A stretch of DNA of 64,000 bases, taken from positions 9,605 through 73,604 of the IMG/VR virus record IMGVR_UViG_3300045988_166199; one strand, 5' to 3'. Below are positions 9,030 through 23,800 of the stretch, piece by piece (the stretch's first letter is position 1; each line of letters starts with the position of its first letter). The position numbers and the translations under genes are program-made. The notes under the pieces are model-generated. The model did no database searches. It saw nothing but the letters and a program-made list of their open reading frames with translations, and had not been told where the DNA came from. Source of the stretch: a virus. Its lineage: Duplodnaviria > Heunggongvirae > Uroviricota > Caudoviricetes.

Positions 9030-9241
9030 TCGTATTAAGTAAACGGGAGAAAGAAACGCTTCATGAAATAAGTAAGTGGCCGGAGTTCCCTGAGTACTGG
9101 AAGCCTAAAACGCGAGCTAAGTTAGAGCGTTTAGGGTTGGTTGCAAACGTTTCTGAAACGTGGCGCTCGGCCAACTACCAGTTAACTGATAAAGGGAAAT
9201 TATTGCTACAGCAATTAGTAGAATCAGGAGCCTTTAAATGA
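9026..9241 (+). CDS. hypothetical protein (71 aa)
   Basis: ORF overlapping ligase stop. Confidence 0.4.
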   Translation: MIVLSKREKETLHEISKWPEFPEYWKPKTRAKLERLGLVANVSETWRSANYQLTDKGKLLLQQLVESGAFK

Positions 9242-9388
9242 TTCCATACATCTCATTGGCTTTTATGGCTGGCTTCCTTATCGGCTTCGGCATCTGTCAT
9301 GATTTGATTAAGCAGGAACTTAAAACCAAAACACTGTGCATCGGAAAGCGCGTGTATCGAGTAGTTCATGAAACAAAGGTGAAAAAAT
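9239..9388 (+). CDS. small membrane protein (about 49 aa, below ORF-track cutoff)
   Basis: ATGATTCCATACATC... hydrophobic ORF MIPYISLAFMAGFLIGFGICHDL; its first 24 nt are repeated at 10250 and partly at 15045. Confidence 0.35.
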
Positions 9389-9677: not shown

Positions 9678-10454
9678 AAATACAATAATAAGTATTTACT
9701 TACCTATCTTTTATGTATAAGATGACTTTGTTTTCGTTGAGACGCGACTGTTTGAACTTAAATACAAGTGCAAACGAAGAAGTCTATCTGGCAGTAGCCT
9801 AATAAGCCAAACACCAGCGAGGTCAGTTTCCAGCCTCGTTACCGAAATGGGACACACTGAGCGAGTGTGATTGCAGAACGCAGGAGGGAACATGAGAGTT
9901 CCCTCCGATGAAGTAACAGAATGGGCGGTCAGTATATTTTCAACTCATATACGACTCCCGGATTCTTAGCCAATGACCGCCCATCCTGTTACGTCATTTT
10001 GTTCAATTATGTCGTTTATACTGGGTTAAAAAGCGGCGACGTAGCCCGGCTGGTATGGTTAGCCAGCACACAACGTTGAGGCCATTACATTTTTATCAAT
10101 TCTAAGGTTCTATTCACAGAGATACCGGCGAGCGTTGATATGTAACATGTTGGGCAAACATTCAATCGGAGTAGTGGCCTCAACGTTGTGAAGACAGGAT
10201 TGTTGTATAGGTTTAACCACTGTTGCCATTAGTGCCTGTTTTCACAACAAATGATTCCATACATCACATTGTATAAATTACAAAGTAGGTGCTGTCCTCA
10301 GAAACATCATCTACTTAAAGATTTTGCCTTCTATTGAGCGAAGTCGAAAACGTCTGGCACTAACGGAAAGTGCCAGTAGCGGTGTGTTTCCTGGCAGAAA
10401 CTAACACCGCCGCGATTGGCACTGTTGAGTAATAAATACTGGCAGTGCTGAATT

Positions 10455-10529
10455 GATGGTGTAGCTCAGCGGTAGAGCAGTTGGCTGTTAACCAACTGGT
10501 CGGTGGTTCGAATCCACCCACCATCGCCA
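10455..10529 (+). tRNA. tRNA-Asn (anticodon GTT)
   Basis: Cloverleaf: acceptor gatggtg/caccatc, anticodon loop ctGTTaa, T-loop ggttcgaatcc, 3' CCA; sequence differs from host asn tRNAs. Confidence 0.8.
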
Positions 10530-10534
10530 ATTTA

Positions 10535-10621
10535 GGGGAGTTAGTCCGTAGAGGTAGCGGGACAGACTGTAAATCTACTGTCATTGCGACTCGGGTGGTT
10601 CGACTCCATCACTCCCCACCA
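10535..10621 (+). tRNA. tRNA-Tyr (anticodon GTA)
   Basis: Acceptor ggggagt/actcccc, anticodon loop ctGTAaa, long variable arm, ggttcgactcc T-loop, CCA. Confidence 0.8.
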
Positions 10622-10625
10622 AATT

Positions 10626-10701
10626 GCCGGTTTAGCTCAGTTGGTAGAGCGCCTGCCTTGTAAGCAGGATGTCAGCGGTTCGAGTCCGTTAACCGGCACC
10701 A
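10626..10701 (+). tRNA. tRNA-Thr (anticodon TGT)
   Basis: Acceptor gccggtt/aaccggc, D-arm tagctcagttggtagagc, anticodon loop ctTGTaa, T-loop ggttcgagtcc, CCA. Confidence 0.75.
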
Positions 10702-10925
10702 ATACAACGATAAGATCATTACGGTTAATCGTCGTTCATGTGCACAATGACTGGTCGAAAGGTAGTGATCTTACCGTTGTGGTGGATTCGCAGACTGATG
10801 CGATAGCTTTCTTGGATGTTAGGGAAATGCGGCCGCAAATCTTCCCTTTCGCGAGCGGTGATCGTCCGTAGTCCTAATTGGCTGCACCGTATGCCGGAGA
10901 TTCAGTACCGGCCACCACAACGGCC

Positions 10926-11012
10926 GGAGAGTAGGGAGCATGGTGCTCAAGCGGTCTTGAAAATCGTCCCATTGTGCAAACGATGATGGTTCGATTCCAT
11001 TACTCTCCGCCA
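10926..11012 (+). tRNA. tRNA-like gene with long variable arm (possibly tRNA-Ser, anticodon TGA; atypical D-arm)
   Basis: Acceptor ggagagt/actctcc, T-loop ggttcgattcc, CCA end; anticodon stem weak and D-loop short, so isotype uncertain. Confidence 0.5.
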
Positions 11013-11190: not shown

Positions 11191-12402
11191 TCAAAAAAGT
11201 TTTATAAATTCATAATTCTGGTCAATTAAGGATTCAATACACACCATGCAAAAATCTACATCGTTAAAATCAGGTGTGTAATATTCATCCTCATAACATT
11301 CATTTAGACCTTCAATCAATTTTTCTTTAAAAACTCCCCACGTTTCAATATGAACCATTTCCATATAAGGCGCATGTGTATGTACTTGCAATACATCCCA
11401 GGTGTCTATAACCTCGATCCGCGGCTTGCAATTAATTTTTTCTAAATATGCCCTCCCAGAATTGTAAATTTTCGACATTGATGCCCCAAAACCTGATGGT
11501 TGGTAATGAGTGTAAATGTCATAAATTTTTTGTCCTATTCTAGGGAGTTGAGAAGCATTGGATATTTGTGGCGAATGAAAGTATCGCTCTATGGAAGAAA
11601 ACGCAGAAACATTAACTAGAGTAATCGTATATGGTGCTAAAGTTCTCTCGTTCAAATTTCTACATAAAATAGCAAACCCATGGCTATTAGTCTTTTCACC
11701 GTCTGAGGACATTTTTGCCATGCTGGCTTTAATAACATTCAATTTCGAATGTAAACGAGAAGTGGAAGTCGGTTGATTATACATTTCATCATCATACAAA
11801 CATATATGAAACCCGCCAAGATGACGAAATGAGAACTTGAGTGCTTCTTCCGCAATAACTAATTTATTAATATCTAAAGGAGTAAGTGATACGTTACCTT
11901 GTAAATCATAGCAAGGTTCTAAACATAGAAAGTTTTTCTTCTGCCACACGATCATATTAAAAATAAAGTGTCTAACCAAAGGTGGCCAGTCAGGTGATAT
12001 AAGTACATTGGTAATATCTCCATCAGACAAGTATGACAAGTAACTTTTTAGTTCCGCAGCATATGCCACTAGCTCAGTTCCAGCTTCCCTTGTTGGTGTT
12101 GAAAAATTTTTTAACTCAATAAGAACTAAGGATTCATTCTCTGTTGAATAAGCAACGACATCAGGTCTTAATATCTCAGATTTTGTTGCTGAGATATTCT
12201 CATCATCTGTCATTAAATGTAACAATGTTATGTTCTTTAAACAAAACTGATAACTCTCCTTAATTTTTTTCTCTTCGGGTCTTTTCGGATTAAATTCATT
12301 TAATTTATCAATATTGATGATTGAATTATATAATCCATCTTGATCAGATAATTTGTCAATTATCCAATTTTGCATTTCCTTTTCGCTTAAAAATATTGAC
12401 AC
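11191..12402 (-). CDS. hypothetical protein, downstream partner of Abi-like gene (403 aa; AbiGii-like size; possible PD..(D/E)xK-like motif)
   Basis: Co-directional, 26-bp spacing from upstream gene; AT-rich codon usage; segment ILRPDVVAYS...LVLIELK compatible with a nuclease-type D...ExK motif (inference only). Confidence 0.55.
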   Translation of the reverse strand: MSIFLSEKEMQNWIIDKLSDQDGLYNSIINIDKLNEFNPKRPEEKKIKESYQFCLKNITLLHLMTDDENISATKSEILRPDVVAYSTENESLVLIELKNFSTPTREAGTELVAYAAELKSYLSYLSDGDITNVLISPDWPPLVRHFIFNMIVWQKKNFLCLEPCYDLQGNVSLTPLDINKLVIAEEALKFSFRHLGGFHICLYDDEMYNQPTSTSRLHSKLNVIKASMAKMSSDGEKTNSHGFAILCRNLNERTLAPYTITLVNVSAFSSIERYFHSPQISNASQLPRIGQKIYDIYTHYQPSGFGASMSKIYNSGRAYLEKINCKPRIEVIDTWDVLQVHTHAPYMEMVHIETWGVFKEKLIEGLNECYEDEYYTPDFNDVDFCMVCIESLIDQNYEFIKLF

Positions 12403-12428
12403 TAATTAGGCTCCCGTTAAACCAAAAA

Positions 12429-13295
12429 TTAAAAATCTTGCTTTACTTTATCCATGGTCAGAATTTTGCTAATAATTGAAGATTCAAATCCATCTAAACC
12501 TGAGAGAAAGTTAATTAGCTTTTGGATATGTTGTTCTTTAGGTATAAGTATATATTTTATATCATTGAACTCAAAATCAATGCCAAACTTTGAAAATTTT
12601 GAGCTAATTTTTGCTTTGTCATCAGAAGTGATAACACGCTCCAAACTCAGACTAGGCCATAAATCACCAATAAAAGGAGCTGGCACATAACGCCACTCTT
12701 TCTCGTCTGCATATATATAATTCTCTATTGTTTTATTATCTTTTCGCTCTAGCTTGCCTCTGTAATTTTTCATATAACGCAGTAAATTATATAGATCAGA
12801 ATATTCTGCTTTCAATTTCTCAAACTCTATTCTGTTTTTGGTATCTAAATTTCCTCTAGCCTTCCAAAGCGGCACCAACTTATTTTTAATAAGTCGAATT
12901 CTGGCATTGTATTTAGAAAATATTTCACTACTCTTATTCATATATAGAACTGGGTGTAGACCTTTCTTTTCCGCCCAAGACTTAGTTAGCCCAAGACCGA
13001 ATTCTCCATATTTTCCGCTATGATCTCTGATTTGTGATAGTTTTATGTCACAAAACGATACCATTGGTACTGCAAACCTCCTGCGTCCCCCGACTCCTCT
13101 TATTTCCTCGCGAGCAAGAAATGGTTTAAAATATTTCTCAGCCAATATGCTATAGAAAGCATCTTCGTTTTTTGTAAAATGAAACAACGTGGTTGGATGA
13201 AGACTATAAACAGATTCAACATTCGCATCAGGATTTTCAAGGATAGTCATTTTACACCTTGTGGAAAGCCAGTTTAGTTCTGTAAATAGTATCAC
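12429..13295 (-). CDS. abortive-infection-like protein (AbiGi-like, 288 aa)
   Basis: Motifs LFHFT, VPMVSFCDIKLSQ, YGEFGLGL.K.WAEKKGL.PVLY resemble AbiGi-type proteins as recalled from memory; AT-rich; first gene of a two-gene operon. Confidence 0.55.
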   Translation of the reverse strand: MILFTELNWLSTRCKMTILENPDANVESVYSLHPTTLFHFTKNEDAFYSILAEKYFKPFLAREEIRGVGGRRRFAVPMVSFCDIKLSQIRDHSGKYGEFGLGLTKSWAEKKGLHPVLYMNKSSEIFSKYNARIRLIKNKLVPLWKARGNLDTKNRIEFEKLKAEYSDLYNLLRYMKNYRGKLERKDNKTIENYIYADEKEWRYVPAPFIGDLWPSLSLERVITSDDKAKISSKFSKFGIDFEFNDIKYILIPKEQHIQKLINFLSGLDGFESSIISKILTMDKVKQDF

Positions 13296-13399: not shown

Positions 13400-13543
13400 A
13401 TGGGAAATAAATGTAAACATGCGCGTCGCGCATCTCGTCAGGTGCAGAAGTCAAATCCATACATTCACGAGCACTACCACCTCAGCTCTTTCACTAACCG
13501 CTACACGTTCCCCAGCGAAGCGCATAACGAGGCAAAGCAATGA
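13400..13543 (+). CDS. small basic protein (about 47 aa; ORF track 13325..13543)
   Basis: Internal ATG start MGNKCKHARRASRQ; stop overlaps glutaredoxin start (ATGA). Confidence 0.3.
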   Translation: MGNKCKHARRASRQVQKSNPYIHEHYHLSSFTNRYTFPSEAHNEAKQ

Positions 13544-13785
13544 CGATCACTATCTATGGACGAGATAACTGCTCATACTGCAAACGTGCGGTCGAGCTGG
13601 CGAAGCAGCTTCACGGTCACGGTTTTGGCGATTACGAATACATCGATATTGTGTCTGCTGGGATAGACAAAGAGAAATTGAGCGCCCTGGTTGGCAAGCC
13701 GGTGGAGACCATACCGCAGGTGTTCGTAAATGGCGAATCTATCGGTGGCTATACGGAATTCGCCGCTCTGGTGAGTACATTATAA
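13540..13785 (+). CDS. glutaredoxin-like protein (NrdC/NrdH-type)
   Basis: CxxC active site CSYC near N-terminus, 81 aa thioredoxin-fold pattern, C-terminal GG.YTEF; followed by terminator. Confidence 0.8.
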   Translation: MTITIYGRDNCSYCKRAVELAKQLHGHGFGDYEYIDIVSAGIDKEKLSALVGKPVETIPQVFVNGESIGGYTEFAALVSTL

Positions 13786-13788
13786 TTA

Positions 13789-13811
13789 AGAGCCGCTTAG
13801 GCGGCTTTTTA
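13789..13811 (+). terminator. rho-independent terminator
   Basis: agccgc ttag gcggc ttttt. Confidence 0.7.
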
Positions 13812-13977
13812 CATGAAAGTGTGCGCTCAAATCAACTATATCTATGAAAAGGACAGTTATAAATATTAAAAATATCTAAAATCCCTTCCGATATATGAAT
13901 TATCAGATTAAAATTTCACACAATGTGCTTTTAATGAGTTATTATTTCACCTTTTGTTGCCTTTACAGTTTAGGTTT

Positions 13978-14967
13978 TCACGTCACGATTATTCTTTTAC
14001 CTTGTCTATCTTTAATCTCAGTCACATACCCTTTCAGTGCCTCTTCATTTAGTAACAGAGCCTCTAATTTCATATCACCAATGATAATGGAGTATATAAG
14101 GTTATAATATGCACATAGTTTTTCATGTATTTCAGGAGAAATGTTTCTACCACGGTGATAATCCATTCCATAAACCGAATCAATTCCTGAGTTCACTATC
14201 TTCATCTGAATTTCAAAAAAATCATTATTTAAATCAAAGTAAACAATAGGGACCTCATATCTTCTGCTAGAAAAATCCATTGGTGATAGATAGTTAAGAC
14301 CATTTGCACTGACCTTCACTTGAATTCCAGCCTGTATACCTGAATTCGACGTTGGAGCAGAAATAAGTAATTGAGAAAGTGGGTCTCGTTTGTCTATCCA
14401 CACAATGTCCCGTTGAGTATCATTAGGTTGATATTTAGTAGGATAGTTAATTTTCGTATAGTTGAGTCCAGTCCCAACAGCTTTATAATTAGACAAACTA
14501 TCTGTGAAAGGGGTATATCTCTTTGCTAATAATGCCCAGTTTTCATTTTGTTTCGCGTTTTTTTCACATTCTTCAACAATGAGTGCTTCCGCAATTTTAC
14601 CTAATATTCTCATAGTTGTTTTATGGGGATCTAGTTCGATAATGATGTTTGACTTGATCACTCCTTCTTCATTAATACCAACAAGACCTAACTCTTTATC
14701 CATGAGTTCAAATAAATTTTCCCCATGCTCAATTGCTAACAAAGCTGAAGGTCGTGATAATAATGAAGAGTTATTCCAATCTCCGAGGGAGATATCCAGA
14801 CCTAAATCAATACCTTTAGTCGTCACTACTAGCTGAGGTTTGGGAGGCGTAGCCCCTAATAACTCAGATAGCGTGTTGACTTCCGGTGTCTCTTTTATCA
14901 TTTTTCTTATCCTGTTGCAGCGATCGCATGACAATACTATAAAACCAGCCATTTTCAAGTAAATCAA
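13978..14967 (-). CDS. hypothetical protein (329 aa ORF; likely start at internal Met MIKETPEV with AGGA RBS)
   Basis: Long AT-rich ORF between glutaredoxin and integrase; no confident domain. Confidence 0.55.
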   Translation of the reverse strand: MIYLKMAGFIVLSCDRCNRIRKMIKETPEVNTLSELLGATPPKPQLVVTTKGIDLGLDISLGDWNNSSLLSRPSALLAIEHGENLFELMDKELGLVGINEEGVIKSNIIIELDPHKTTMRILGKIAEALIVEECEKNAKQNENWALLAKRYTPFTDSLSNYKAVGTGLNYTKINYPTKYQPNDTQRDIVWIDKRDPLSQLLISAPTSNSGIQAGIQVKVSANGLNYLSPMDFSSRRYEVPIVYFDLNNDFFEIQMKIVNSGIDSVYGMDYHRGRNISPEIHEKLCAYYNLIYSIIIGDMKLEALLLNEEALKGYVTEIKDRQGKRIIVT

Positions 14968-15044
14968 TTACCTTTTAGGTGATGAAGATAAAAGTGAAGC
15001 CAACCCCTCCGTTCGAAAAGATAGATTCAAAAAAATCGCCCCCC

Positions 15045-15077
15045 AATGATTCCATACCTACTATGTATGGAATCATT
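15045..15077. promoter_or_regulatory. perfect 12-bp inverted repeat with 9-bp spacer upstream of integrase (candidate recombinase core site or operator)
   Basis: aatgattccata cctactatg tatggaatcatt; left arm also occurs as direct repeats at 9237 and 10250. Confidence 0.5.
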
Positions 15078-15175
15078 ACTGAAAATGAGTTACTTTTACT
15101 CTTGATCCTATAAGAATCTATGCCTAATATACTGTTTACTTATACAGTGCATCGGCGTAACTCGGTGATTGTCAT

Positions 15176-16279
15176 ATGAAAAATAGCTTTGACAGAGCAC
15201 GCGCTGCGGAGAACACCTCAAAAGAGGCGATTGAGTATCTCGAAAGAGCATCTCAAATGCAGGCCGTTATGATCTCCCAGGTCAGCAATGACATGAGATT
15301 CTCGGACGCATTCATGTTATTCACTCGCTTATCTCTGCTGATAACAAGACGTCGGCCAGAGATCGCTGTTCATTGTATTTTGATACATGTTTTGCCGCAC
15401 ATTGCCGATGTAAAAGTAAGTGATATTAATAGGTTCATGGTGAACCAACTGGTCAACCCACTAATACTGGATGGCAAAATTGTTATGGGTCGCCGCGTTT
15501 TCTCTCTGATGAAGCAGTTCCTCAGCTGGTGCGCCTTCCAGGGGATGATCGACGTGTCACCGTTAAACGATATGTCACTTAACAAAGTTGCCGGTGGCGC
15601 AAAGCCCACACCTCGCGAGCGGAAGCTGACCGACGCAGAGGTATGGGTGTTCTGGAATATATGGGACTACTTCAATGTGTGTGCTGGTACAAAATGGGCG
15701 GCCAGGCTATGTCTTGTATCCGCAAGACGACCTGACGAAGTACTGCGGGCTAAAAAAAGTGAGTTCAATCTTAAGCGTGGGGTTTGGAATCAAGGCAAGA
15801 GGAACAAATCTGCCCGTGAGCATTCTCTGCCTTTAAGCTCATTAATGCGCACATGTATTGAAGAGTTGTTCGAATATGGTAAAGACAGCCAGTGGCTCGT
15901 GCCTTCGAATAAAAAAATCGGGAAAGACCTTCCTATGTCTAAAGTGGCAATAGCCCAGGCATTACGTCGTATTCTGGAACGACCAGAACTGATGGAGCTT
16001 GAGCCATTTACACCCCGAGATTTGCGCCGTACTGCGCGTAGTTACTTCCCAGCATTAGGCATAAGCCAGGAGGTATCACGTAAAATCATGAACCACAGTC
16101 TTGAGGGGATAGATCGGGTCTACGACCGGCACGATTATATGGACGAGATGCGAGACGCCTTAGAAAGTTTCTCGACGTACATCGCATCAATCGTAGAGCA
16201 ACCGGATTTAGACGAAATTGACCACAAATTTAAGGGAGATCGTCTATCAACAGAGCTTATTCGTGTAAATTTTTCATAG
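15176..16279 (+). CDS. tyrosine-type site-specific integrase
   Basis: C-terminal catalytic motifs: R in LVSARRPDE, RDLRRTARS box II, NHS...RVYDRHDY with tyrosine nucleophile; lacks a recognisable P4-type N-terminal arm-binding domain. Confidence 0.8.
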   Translation: MKNSFDRARAAENTSKEAIEYLERASQMQAVMISQVSNDMRFSDAFMLFTRLSLLITRRRPEIAVHCILIHVLPHIADVKVSDINRFMVNQLVNPLILDGKIVMGRRVFSLMKQFLSWCAFQGMIDVSPLNDMSLNKVAGGAKPTPRERKLTDAEVWVFWNIWDYFNVCAGTKWAARLCLVSARRPDEVLRAKKSEFNLKRGVWNQGKRNKSAREHSLPLSSLMRTCIEELFEYGKDSQWLVPSNKKIGKDLPMSKVAIAQALRRILERPELMELEPFTPRDLRRTARSYFPALGISQEVSRKIMNHSLEGIDRVYDRHDYMDEMRDALESFSTYIASIVEQPDLDEIDHKFKGDRLSTELIRVNFS

Positions 16280-20868: not shown

Positions 20869-23800
20869 CTTCTCTCTTGGGGAGTCGGCTCTAAAAGCAG
20901 AAAACGCGGTGAAGATTGCCAGAGAAGCTGGCTACACCGCTGTAATTTCGGCAGATAGCATGAATATTGCGAGTGTTATTCCACTACAACGTGCCGCTGG
21001 TGACGACATGGCGGTTATTTGTGGTGTGAAACTAAACATTGTTGATGATCCCACATACGAGCACCGGGCTAAACTTGCTAAAGAGTCTATGGGATGTATG
21101 GAATCATTAGAGCGTGGGCGGAACTACTCCTTTACCGCTCTAATTAAAAATGAGCAGGGATATCGAGACATCTGCGAACTAATGACGGCGGCCAACACAC
21201 GAGAACAGTTCTACTTTGTACCGCGTCTCTCGCTCGAACAGTTGGTTTCTACATATGCCAAAGGCAACATCATCCTGCTCACTGCCGACATCGGTAGCGT
21301 GTACCAACGCAACGATTTTGCAAAAATCATAAGCTCACTGATTACAGCGGGTGGAAAAAACAACTTCTATAGTGTGGTTTATCCGCACCCTACCCCATTC
21401 TACGACCAGATTAACGTCCGGGCGATGAAAGTCGCCAGCGCACTGAAAATAGAGCCAGTAGCGTTCTATCCCGCTTATTACGAATCGATCGACGATGCAG
21501 ACATTAAAGACATTGCGCACATGGTTACGAACAACATCAAAATCGACCAGCCGCATCGTCTGCGTATCCCCCACCAGCGAGATAACGCCGTCAATGGTCG
21601 CCGCCATCTCCTTGAGGCGCTGAAAGCCTTCTCCGTTCGCATGGATGTGCCGGTAACAGCCGCAATGGCCTCAACAACGCAGGATACCATTATCGATGCC
21701 TGCACATGGCGCTGGCATGAATTGCCACCAGCACTGCCAAAGATGGCAGACGACGAGCCTGCAACGCTGATGAAACTGGCCGTTGCTGGGCTGCGTAAAC
21801 GTCTTACCACAAAAGAGTTTGGCTACACACCACCGGCTTCTGAGAACAGGGTTTATGTTGAGCGACTTAAGTACGAAATGGACACGCTTACTCGCCTGGG
21901 ATTTTGTGGTTACTTCCTGATGGTACGCGATCTGATGAATCACAGCCGTGAAACTGGCATTCCTGTCGGGCCTGGTCGTGGTTCCTCCGCTGGCTCTTTG
22001 GTGGCATGGTGCATAGGCATAACCAACGTCGACCCTATCCGTCACGGTCTTCTGTTTGAACGTTTCATCAACCCTGAGCGTCTCGACTTGCCAGATGCGG
22101 ACTTGGACTTCAGCCAGGCACGTCGCCATGAGGTGATCGAGTATCTGAATGAACGCTACGGCGAAGATTACGTTGCAGGCATTCCGAACTTCACCTACCT
22201 GGGCGCGGCCTCTGCACTACGTGACACCGCTCGTATTTATGGTGTGGAGTCCGCAGATATGGCGGTATCAAAAGAACTGAAGAACGTCGAGGATGATAGC
22301 CTTCCATTGGAAGAGCTGCGCGAACAACTGGCAAGCCTCGACAAATACGCGACAAAATATCCTGATGCATTCAATGCAGCCTGCAAGTTACAAAGCCTTA
22401 TGCGTGGCTATGGTAGACATGCGGCAGGGATGATCGTAGCAGGTGTTCCTCTGACAGAACGAACACCGGTTGAACGACGTGGTGACGCGCGTTGTATCGC
22501 ATTTGACAAGCGTTACTGCGAGGCTATGGGCCTAATTAAGCTGGACGTACTTGGCCTGGCGACTCTCGATTTGCTCGATAGTGCAAAACGCTACATTAAA
22601 GAGAACACAGGTGAGGATATCAATCTTGATGCCATTTCTCTTGAAGATCGCAAGGTGCTGGATGGTTTTGCTGCTGGGTACACTCAAGGTGTTTTCCAGC
22701 TTGAATCAGGCCCAATGCGCAAGCTGCTTAAAGATTTAGGTGGTGGAATTGAGCCAATGAGCTTTAAAACGGTCGTTGCTACGACTGCGCTCTTCCGGCC
22801 GGGGCCAATTCAGTCAGGCATGTTGGATGATTATGTTTCTGTCGCCAAAGGCTTTATGACGCCGGAATCATTACACCCCGTTCTTGATGAACTTACCGCA
22901 GAAACAAATGGCGTGATTCTCTATCAGGAACAGACGATGAACGCGACTCGATTGCTTGCCGGCTTCACAATGGCTGAAGCTGACGGCGTTCGTAAAGCGA
23001 TCGGCAAAAAAGACATGGAGAAAATGAAGAGCATGGGTGAGAAGTTCATCGTTCAGGCTCAAGCTGGCTGGATCGACGTTGAGCTGGAAGATGGCACTAC
23101 ACAGCGCATTCACCGTGCGGAACATTTTAAATGCGAAGACGGAACTCTGAAAACTGTCGAAGAGGCACTTGAGTTCGGTGCAAAACTACCTATAAACGCA
23201 GTACGCGTTACAGCGTCACATCCAGGGCTATCAGAGATGAAAGCGAAGGAGATCTGGACCGCATTCGAAAAGAATGGTGCCTACCAGTTCAACAAATCAC
23301 ACTCTGTTGCTTACTCCTTAATCAGTTATCAATCTATGTGGTTGAAAACTCATTATCCCGCAGAGTTTTTCGCTGCTGCTCTCACTATTCTTGGCGAAGA
23401 TAAACACCAGGGGCTGGTTAAAGATGCGCTGACCTATGGTATTCGCGTATTGCCACCAGACGTTAACATGTCATCTAACCGAATCGAGATCCGCACGCTT
23501 GAAGATGGCAGCCAGGTGCTGTATGCGCCCTTCTCTGCTGTGAAGGGGTGTTCTGAGAATGGCTGCCAGGCCATCATGAGAGCGCGAGAAAAGGTTGGCG
23601 GCAAATTCGAGTCACTTGCGCAATTCGAAGAAGCTGTCGAGAAACGTGCCTGTAATAGTCGAGTGCGCGAATCGCTGCAAAAAGTAGGGGCGTTTGCATC
23701 CATCGAGCCAGGTAGTCTGCCAGCAACTGATCCAGAGCGCCTCCGCGACCAGGCTGAATTGATGGGAAACCTTGTCATAGATGCAGTTAAAGCCTCACGT

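Follow-up and report, generated by a model that had tools for sequence, protein, structure and literature searches.

What is encoded by the minus-strand gene that lies between the glutaredoxin (grx) and tyrosine integrase genes of a tailed-phage genome? The gene occupies 13978-14901 (-) of the 64-kb window analysed here (64,000 nucleotides of IMG/VR record IMGVR_UViG_3300045988_166199, to which all positions refer). Judged by its matches to SSU5-group Escherichia coli phage-plasmids (phage CMS-2020a, phage Cyrano and Klebsiella relatives), the window is an SSU5-like E. coli phage-plasmid. We refer to the gene as the target and to its homologs as the target family. With moderate confidence, we propose that the target is a stand-alone defence nuclease directed against phages or plasmids. 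The fold, the logic of cargo hotspots and defence islands and the likely role are known; what is new is the family itself, which is unnamed.

A conserved family with a predicted nuclease core

The target open reading frame (ORF) is a genuine gene. Its GC content is 36%, compared with 45% for the whole window, and at this composition ~7% of codons would be expected to be stops, giving an estimated chance of ~1e-10 for a 300-codon open frame. A word-indexed search also recovered 71 homologs of the protein, the best to E=1e-84. The first-pass annotation of this DNA described an AT-rich gene with unknown function, 329 amino acids (aa) long, between grx and the integrase, on the opposite strand and with its own upstream region. 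All of this stands except the length. The unbroken minus-strand ORF runs from 14967 to 13978 and yields 329 aa if counted from a TTG. The true start is almost certainly ATG 14901 (924 bp, 307 aa), because homolog N-termini line up with Met23 of the longer reading, because AGGA sits 8 nt upstream, because RefSeq/PGAP annotates a 924-bp gene on identical plasmids, and because the sole minus-strand sigma-70-like hexamers overlap the extra 22 codons. The gene thus has putative expression signals of its own, although the total of promoter-motif matches over the region (8 observed vs 6.3 expected) is not above chance. The RefSeq entry for the protein, WP_052322692.1, is annotated 'hypothetical protein'. 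The features of the gene, with their basis in brackets, are as follows.

13978-14901, minus strand: target gene proper, 307-aa protein (ORF list, homolog N-termini, AGGA, PGAP call, homolog searches)
14902-14967, minus strand: extra 22 codons of the earlier reading, probably 5' untranslated region and promoter and not coding (homologs without the extension, Shine-Dalgarno AGGA, hexamers)
14913-14910, minus strand: Shine-Dalgarno sequence AGGA (sequence reading)
14963-14931, minus strand: sigma-70-like hexamers, putative promoter (promoter-motif scan)
14182-14640, minus strand: predicted nuclease core, residues ~88-240 (AlphaFold secondary structure)
14587-14589, minus strand: codon of E105 in core helix 1, 'GKIAEAxIV' (conserved in 68/68 and 88/89 sequences of the two sets defined below)
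14407-14409, minus strand: codon of D165 at the N-terminal edge of strand 2, 'TQRDIIW' (68/68 and 89/89)
14314-14322, minus strand: codons of Q194-V-K196 (QxK) in strand 3, 'AGLQVKVS' (Q 68/68, K 68/68; at least 88/89 in the broader set)

Conservation was assessed in an alignment of 68 sequences and in a more divergent set of 89. Family-wide invariant columns are G101, E105, C112, N119, T144, T149, Q163, D165, Q194, K196, Y215, P218, Y221 and F222; in the divergent set D165 stays invariant and E105, Q194 and K196 very nearly so. The AlphaFold model of the target has a predicted local distance difference test score (pLDDT) of 83.7 and a predicted template-modelling score of 0.81; the core alone has a pLDDT of 85.5. 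The secondary-structure order of PD-(D/E)xK enzymes is present in two AlphaFold models of the target, and on both of them DSSP assigned helix 92-114, strands 139-143, 166-170 and 192-198, helix 201-211 and strand 219-223, so that strand 3 is followed by a helix and then by a fourth strand ('YEVPxVYF'). The PD-(D/E)xK signature (helix 1 with an acid, strand 2 opening with D, strand 3 with QxK) falls at the expected elements. From these models, the target family very probably has a restriction-endonuclease-type PD-(D/E)xK fold, and we infer that E105, D165, Q194 and K196 cluster as one 'PD-QxK' metal-dependent phosphodiesterase site.

Structural comparisons give weak likenesses to proteins of this kind. 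A Foldseek search with the target model found no match below E=1 in PDB. The restriction-fold likenesses include the enzymes NgoMIV, PaqCI, BsaWI, N.BspD6I, AgeI, SwaI, BstEII, PfoI, HindIII, Cfr10I, Bse634I and MspI, with scores near the noise floor and 7-15% identity for the Type II restriction enzymes. They also include three CdiA-CT toxins, Bax1, orthomyxovirus and bunyavirus cap-snatching endonucleases and a structural-genomics protein described as 'restriction endonuclease-like fold'. Searches of PDB sequences with phmmer and with a family-profile hmmsearch returned noise only (MamB, E=0.2; DUF574, E=1.7).

The PD-QxK style of active site has been described for Mrr/BisI-type enzymes (PMC11347163). 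E. coli Mrr carries this variant as D203...Q219-A-K221, a D...QxK signature in common with D165...Q194-V-K196 of the target. Like the target, the PD-QxK Type IV enzymes (Mrr, MspJI, BisI/NhoI) are solitary, lack a methyltransferase, are ~200-300 aa long and reside in accessory regions. No Pfam match to Mrr_cat (PF04471) was obtained for the target or for any of the 89 members (E<=1), and hhalign comparison with E. coli Mrr gave 0.1% probability whether single sequences or family alignments were used, a weak negative given that the Mrr alignment is shallow (>=70% identity). On these comparisons, the target family shares fold and active-site style with Mrr-type enzymes and is not a member of that group.

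The family has so far escaped annotation. Direct profile searches of Pfam, PADLOC, PHROGs and NCBIfam gave no match to the target protein. No recurrent Pfam family covered the shared region when the 89 diverse members were scanned singly (E<=1); singleton weak matches included RmuC, Exo5 and DUF4268, which we take to belong to the PD-(D/E)xK clan. A broadened family profile found no Pfam-annotated relative in a set of 5.8 billion proteins, and literature searches by accession found no papers on the family. By these searches it is unnamed and lies outside the known and candidate systems of PADLOC v2.0.0 (2023 library).

An exhaustive hidden Markov model search of 1.84 billion cluster representatives found 235 target-family clusters, and scanning 185,579 species, each represented by one genome, gave 40 loci. 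Proteobacterial carriers in the species scan are Campylobacteraceae, several gamma- and betaproteobacteria and a deltaproteobacterium; the others are Aureliella, cyanobacteria (Nostoc, Prochloron), many Lachnospiraceae and Clostridia, Mitsuokella, Muribaculaceae and Gardnerella (a fragment). Small Acinetobacter plasmids and phages of Clostridium and Agathobacter have members as well. This rare and phylogenetically scattered distribution fits horizontally traded accessory genes. The members of Azotobacter vinelandii DJ (Avin_36430; L005) and Clostridium phage CWou-2020b (L002) are publicly annotated as short proteins of 212-213 aa; ORFs and homolog alignments support ~300 aa for both.

Several relatives carry additional domains. 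A 662-aa Firmicute member, P0077 (locus L017, 8001-9989), has an N-terminal M.HhaI-like C5-methyltransferase domain (Pfam 5e-36) in which the motif GFPCQAFS is replaced by SLIRRHSS (Cys81 to Arg; PCQ to IRR) and ENV by ESL. Judged by these substitutions, the domain is catalytically dead; it plausibly still binds DNA and flips a base, and could act as a modification reader. A subclass of ~410 aa has N-terminal extensions with paired CxxC motifs that resemble zinc ribbons, and one member combines C-terminal MORN repeats with D165N. Such fusions speak for DNA as the substrate and for a 'sensor plus nuclease' design. In the target itself, neither the N-terminal part (~30-90) nor the C-terminal helices (~250-300) had any match.

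Single-gene cargo beside a recombinase

How did the gene reach this position? The target is convergent with grx (13540-13785, +) and divergent from the tyrosine integrase (15176-16279, +; Pfam match). Comparison with related phage-plasmids delimits the following segment.

13790-15022: cargo segment, ~1.2 kb, 35% GC (BLAST boundaries, about 13790 and 15022, against relatives L022, which is empty, and L021 and L001, which hold other cargo)

This segment is not found in the related phage-plasmids compared. It holds the target gene, its upstream region and flanks and a hairpin common to grx, and no further gene. In pCUVET20-PYO4.2 and pUTAK-6-1 (L022, L023) the slot is an empty 211-bp spacer. In pEC16-2 (L021) it holds a YafO-family toxin and a 202-aa protein, and in phage Cyrano an unrelated 184-aa minus-strand gene. 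The slot of the Enterobacter phage-plasmid pCP102 contains a 356-aa target-family member on the opposite strand, 36% identical and with all catalytic motifs kept. Since this member is distant and oppositely oriented, the target family must have entered the slot at least twice independently. The grx-integrase interval (13786-15175; compared with L001, L016, L021, L022 and L023) is a cargo hotspot of SSU5-like phage-plasmids, and the target was gained horizontally as single-gene cargo, in line with the islet described in the first-pass annotation. The gene is dispensable, being missing from closely related phage-plasmids.

The target occurs in 7 of 5,426 complete E. coli genomes, each time on a ~112-kb circular plasmid that is identical over the target region. 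In a large collection the exact protein is found on 356 contigs, mainly from E. coli and also from Salmonella, always with the label 'hypothetical protein'.

An abortive-infection-like cassette lies on the other side of grx, and the first-pass annotation considered the target as either a third component of this cassette or a separate system. The gene at 12429-13295 (-) encodes AbiGi (PADLOC 5e-47, Pfam 5e-25). Its partner at 11191-12402 (-) encodes a 403-aa protein of phrog_30092 with weak HSDR_N-type matches (E=0.008), which may represent another PD-(D/E)xK domain; an AbiGii identity for this partner was not found with PADLOC, Pfam or NCBIfam, and the pair (11191-13295) may be a non-canonical AbiGi system. 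The pair was found in 19 of the 5,426 complete E. coli genomes, on phage-plasmids each time; the target accompanies it in 7 of these 19 and is missing from the other 12. The backbone grx gene stands between the two. Around 50 other loci of the target family, none of 610 flanking ORFs resembles AbiGi or the 403-aa partner, and the target protein matches no AbiG component in PADLOC or Pfam. The target thus shares an islet with AbiGi and assorts independently of the cassette, so the proposal of a third component falls away and that of a separate system, plausibly a defence gene, is supported.

An R-x6-H string near the C-terminus had also been noted as compatible with, though no proof of, a HEPN-type RNase motif.

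14125-14148, minus strand: RNISPEIH, no conserved motif (R in 29/68 and H in 25/68 family members)

The string exists, at residues 274-281 of the 329-aa reading and 252-259 of the 307-aa protein, and the target lies ~700 bp from the cassette. It falls outside the conserved core, at the start of the C-terminal helical region in the AlphaFold model; both the R and the H columns vary, unlike the conserved R-x4-6-H of HEPN RNases, and the predicted core is alpha/beta and nuclease-like, with no all-helical HEPN domain. We therefore rejected the HEPN assignment. Together with the phage-plasmids that carry the cassette alone and the lack of AbiGi homologs at the other loci, this leaves almost no credence for a HEPN-type RNase acting as the third part of an AbiGi-like cassette.

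Solitary genes among diverse defence systems

What company the family keeps was assessed from ORFs called around the 50 loci: 610 ORFs within 6 kb and, at 33 non-redundant loci, the 130 immediate neighbours. Among the latter, even the most frequent Pfam family occurs just three times. No conserved partner or antitoxin was detected with Pfam, PADLOC or an all-vs-all BLAST of the flanking ORFs, which cover partners above ~70 aa (at least one short gene, grx in L016, escaped the ORF caller). Neighbours are held in common only within near-identical elements, apart from assorted recombinases. Pfam and PADLOC likewise revealed no methyltransferase recurring beside the family, save two self-contained Type IIG enzymes. 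The target family is solitary, with no conserved partner.

Its settings are mobile and often rich in defence genes. They include an integrase-bounded island beside mutS, an Azotobacter integrative and conjugative element in which the gene sits among toxin-antitoxin genes and insertion sequences, Firmicute elements with serine recombinases, a 6-kb plasmid, and phages. In two Pseudomonas islands (L010, 4670-8927; L009, 6643-8927) a 406-aa SIR2 gene is divergent from the family member at a distance of ~120 bp, and the whole L010 island consists of an integrase, SIR2 and the target-family gene; the two could form a lineage-specific two-gene system or be two adjacent single-gene systems. Upstream of family members and on the same strand we found a complete Lamassu LmuA-LmuC-LmuB set ending 76 bp away in Methylomonas (L032, 5639-10879), LmuB with a gap of ~600 bp in Paraburkholderia (L029, 4001-7396) and Bunzi BnzB ending 25 bp away in a Campylobacteraceae genome (L026, 250-2724). 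Family members at these three loci may be co-transcribed with the upstream defence genes. MADS genes lie near the members in L040 and L048, a HEC-06-like protein in L043, and a PDC-M62A/B candidate system with a reverse transcriptase beside P0077 in L017. Further defence matches among the neighbours, not placed at individual loci, are to Type IIG, AbiEi, Type I S, PDC-S35 and Pycsar-TIR. Defence neighbours were mapped explicitly at nine loci, and by a rough estimate a recognised defence gene lies within two genes at about one third of ~43 non-redundant loci. The variety of these neighbours points to residence in defence islands and not to membership of any one system; the co-localisation with defence genes that the first-pass annotation anticipated is frequent, with no one conserved partner.

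Lamassu effectors are often PD-(D/E)xK-type nucleases, and in L029 and L032 a family member directly follows lmuB. As a general rule, the role of Lamassu effector (LmuA) was nevertheless rejected: L032 already has LmuA and LmuC and is complete without the family member, the target has no LmuA match in PADLOC, and most members have no Lamassu system nearby.

What, then, does the target do? We infer nuclease activity, DNA as the substrate, a role in defence and a rule for telling self from non-self. The gene was gained as a single-gene cassette in the grx-integrase slot and would be expressed in the lysogen from its own putative promoter. E105, D165, Q194 and K196 would form the metal-dependent phosphodiesterase site with which the protein cleaves invading nucleic acid, most likely the DNA of rival phages or plasmids, to the benefit of the phage-plasmid and the host that carries it. 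Recognition or oligomerisation would fall to the small N-terminal region and to the helical C-terminal part, and in relatives extra recognition modules, such as the dead C5-methyltransferase and zinc ribbons, would be fused on. With neither a cognate methyltransferase nor an antitoxin, self-DNA would have to be spared either because the enzyme responds to a foreign mark, as Type IV enzymes do, or because it is activated by infection. The Type IV-like option agrees with the QxK style, with the solitary state and with the fusion to a dead methyltransferase; modification dependence is a possible sub-case, about which we are doubtful. More tentatively than the defence role itself, we suggest that the family is a modular single-gene restriction system, in which a self-sufficient PD-QxK core reads a feature of foreign DNA (a base modification or a phage-replication structure) and can thus do without a methyltransferase, sensors are swapped (a dead base-flipping C5-methyltransferase, double zinc ribbons, MORN repeats), and phage-plasmids have repeatedly captured the gene at a recombinase-adjacent hotspot as an anti-phage weapon.

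Other functions have to be weighed against defence by DNA cleavage. The likeness to CdiA-CT PD-(D/E)xK toxins (Burkholderia pseudomallei 1026b/E479, E. coli EC869) raises the possibility of an RNA-targeting toxin, for instance a tRNase that halts translation on infection and so aborts it. Unlike those toxins, the target has no delivery domain and no adjacent immunity gene, and it is a 307-aa protein with extra N- and C-terminal regions; we consider a tRNase-like role unlikely. The same judgement applies to a housekeeping or selfish nuclease of the mobile element without a defence role, acting in recombination or repair, in replication, in TnsA-like excision or as a homing endonuclease. The family is always on mobile elements and often beside integrases or recombinases, its phage members sit in morphogenesis or replication modules, and E/D/QxK is also the active-site arrangement of TnsA. 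Yet the adjacent recombinases belong to different families, and no recombinase, annealase or transposase is conserved as a partner. Closely related phage-plasmids do without the gene, which is not inside a conserved gene as homing endonuclease genes usually are, and defence systems are frequent neighbours.

An orphan Type II restriction enzyme, with its protective methyltransferase elsewhere on the phage-plasmid or in the host, is very improbable. Unlike the Type II enzymes that the target resembles (the NgoMIV/Cfr10I/Bse634I/BsaWI/AgeI group; PaqCI, SwaI, BstEII, HindIII, MspI), the family has a cognate methyltransferase at none of its 50 loci. None of the plasmid's methyltransferases is encoded in the cargo segment, where the target is the only gene, and the sole methyltransferase fusion is predicted to be dead. 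Could the protein instead not be a nuclease at all? A competing weak signal to Rossmann methyltransferases would make it a nucleotide-binding protein whose 'AIGTGL' loop binds a cofactor, or an inert adaptor. This is quite improbable: the alignments span only 49-91 residues around the loop, the signal fits poorly because no helix separates strands 2 and 3 (a meander, not beta-alpha-beta crossovers), the end of strand 2 has no conserved acidic residue, and the invariant E...D...QxK has no role in methyltransferases. Defence by a stand-alone nuclease accordingly stays our preferred reading.

If it is correct, an unannotated single-gene nuclease family, to which Pfam is blind and for which PADLOC v2.0.0 has no model, would join the anti-phage repertoire. 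The locus would likewise provide a concrete case of phage-plasmids exchanging defence cargo at a defined slot beside a recombinase, and the dead-methyltransferase fusion, if it works as suggested, would be an enzyme domain reused as a DNA reader. Restriction-like enzymes that act alone and have new specificities also serve as reagents for mapping DNA modification. Among E. coli and Salmonella of livestock and patients, the target travels on phage-plasmids that bear resistance genes as well, and it may shape which phages, therapeutic ones included, infect the strains that carry it.

Slot edges and other features of the phage-plasmid

One flank of the cargo segment carries a further feature.

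13791-13806, strand not assigned: GC-rich hairpin between the convergent grx and target genes, followed by a T-run on the plus strand (sequence)

From its sequence, the hairpin is likely the grx terminator, and it is possibly bidirectional. An Rfam scan of the cargo segment returned nothing meaningful.

At the other edge of the slot, two copies of the 13-mer AATGATTCCATAC, which extends to ~AATGATTCCATACATCNCAT, form a palindrome with 16-nt arms (15045-15077), ~100 bp upstream of the integrase start. The 13-mer has exactly five copies, all within 9.2-21.1 kb of the window; the other three are at 9237-9249, 10250-10262 and 21096-21108. Eight matches are obtained with up to two mismatches allowed, a number reached in 0 of 100 shuffles. 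The palindrome is kept in Cyrano, pEC16-2, pCUVET20 and even the distant pCP102. As a candidate operator or recombinase site, it might account for the build-up of cargo at the slot.

The tRNA cluster at 10455-11012 differs among relatives: it reads Asn-Tyr-Thr-Ser in the window, and Cyrano and pEC16-2 lack tRNA-Tyr. Plasmid NZ_CP104116.1, which is identical to the window across the target locus (83.7-94.8 kb), has in addition a Type I restriction-modification system, a Dam-like methyltransferase, a Cor exclusion lipoprotein, dfrA51 and host-like metG and apbC. In one relative, an ISEcp1-blaCTX-M insertion adjoins the ligase gene.
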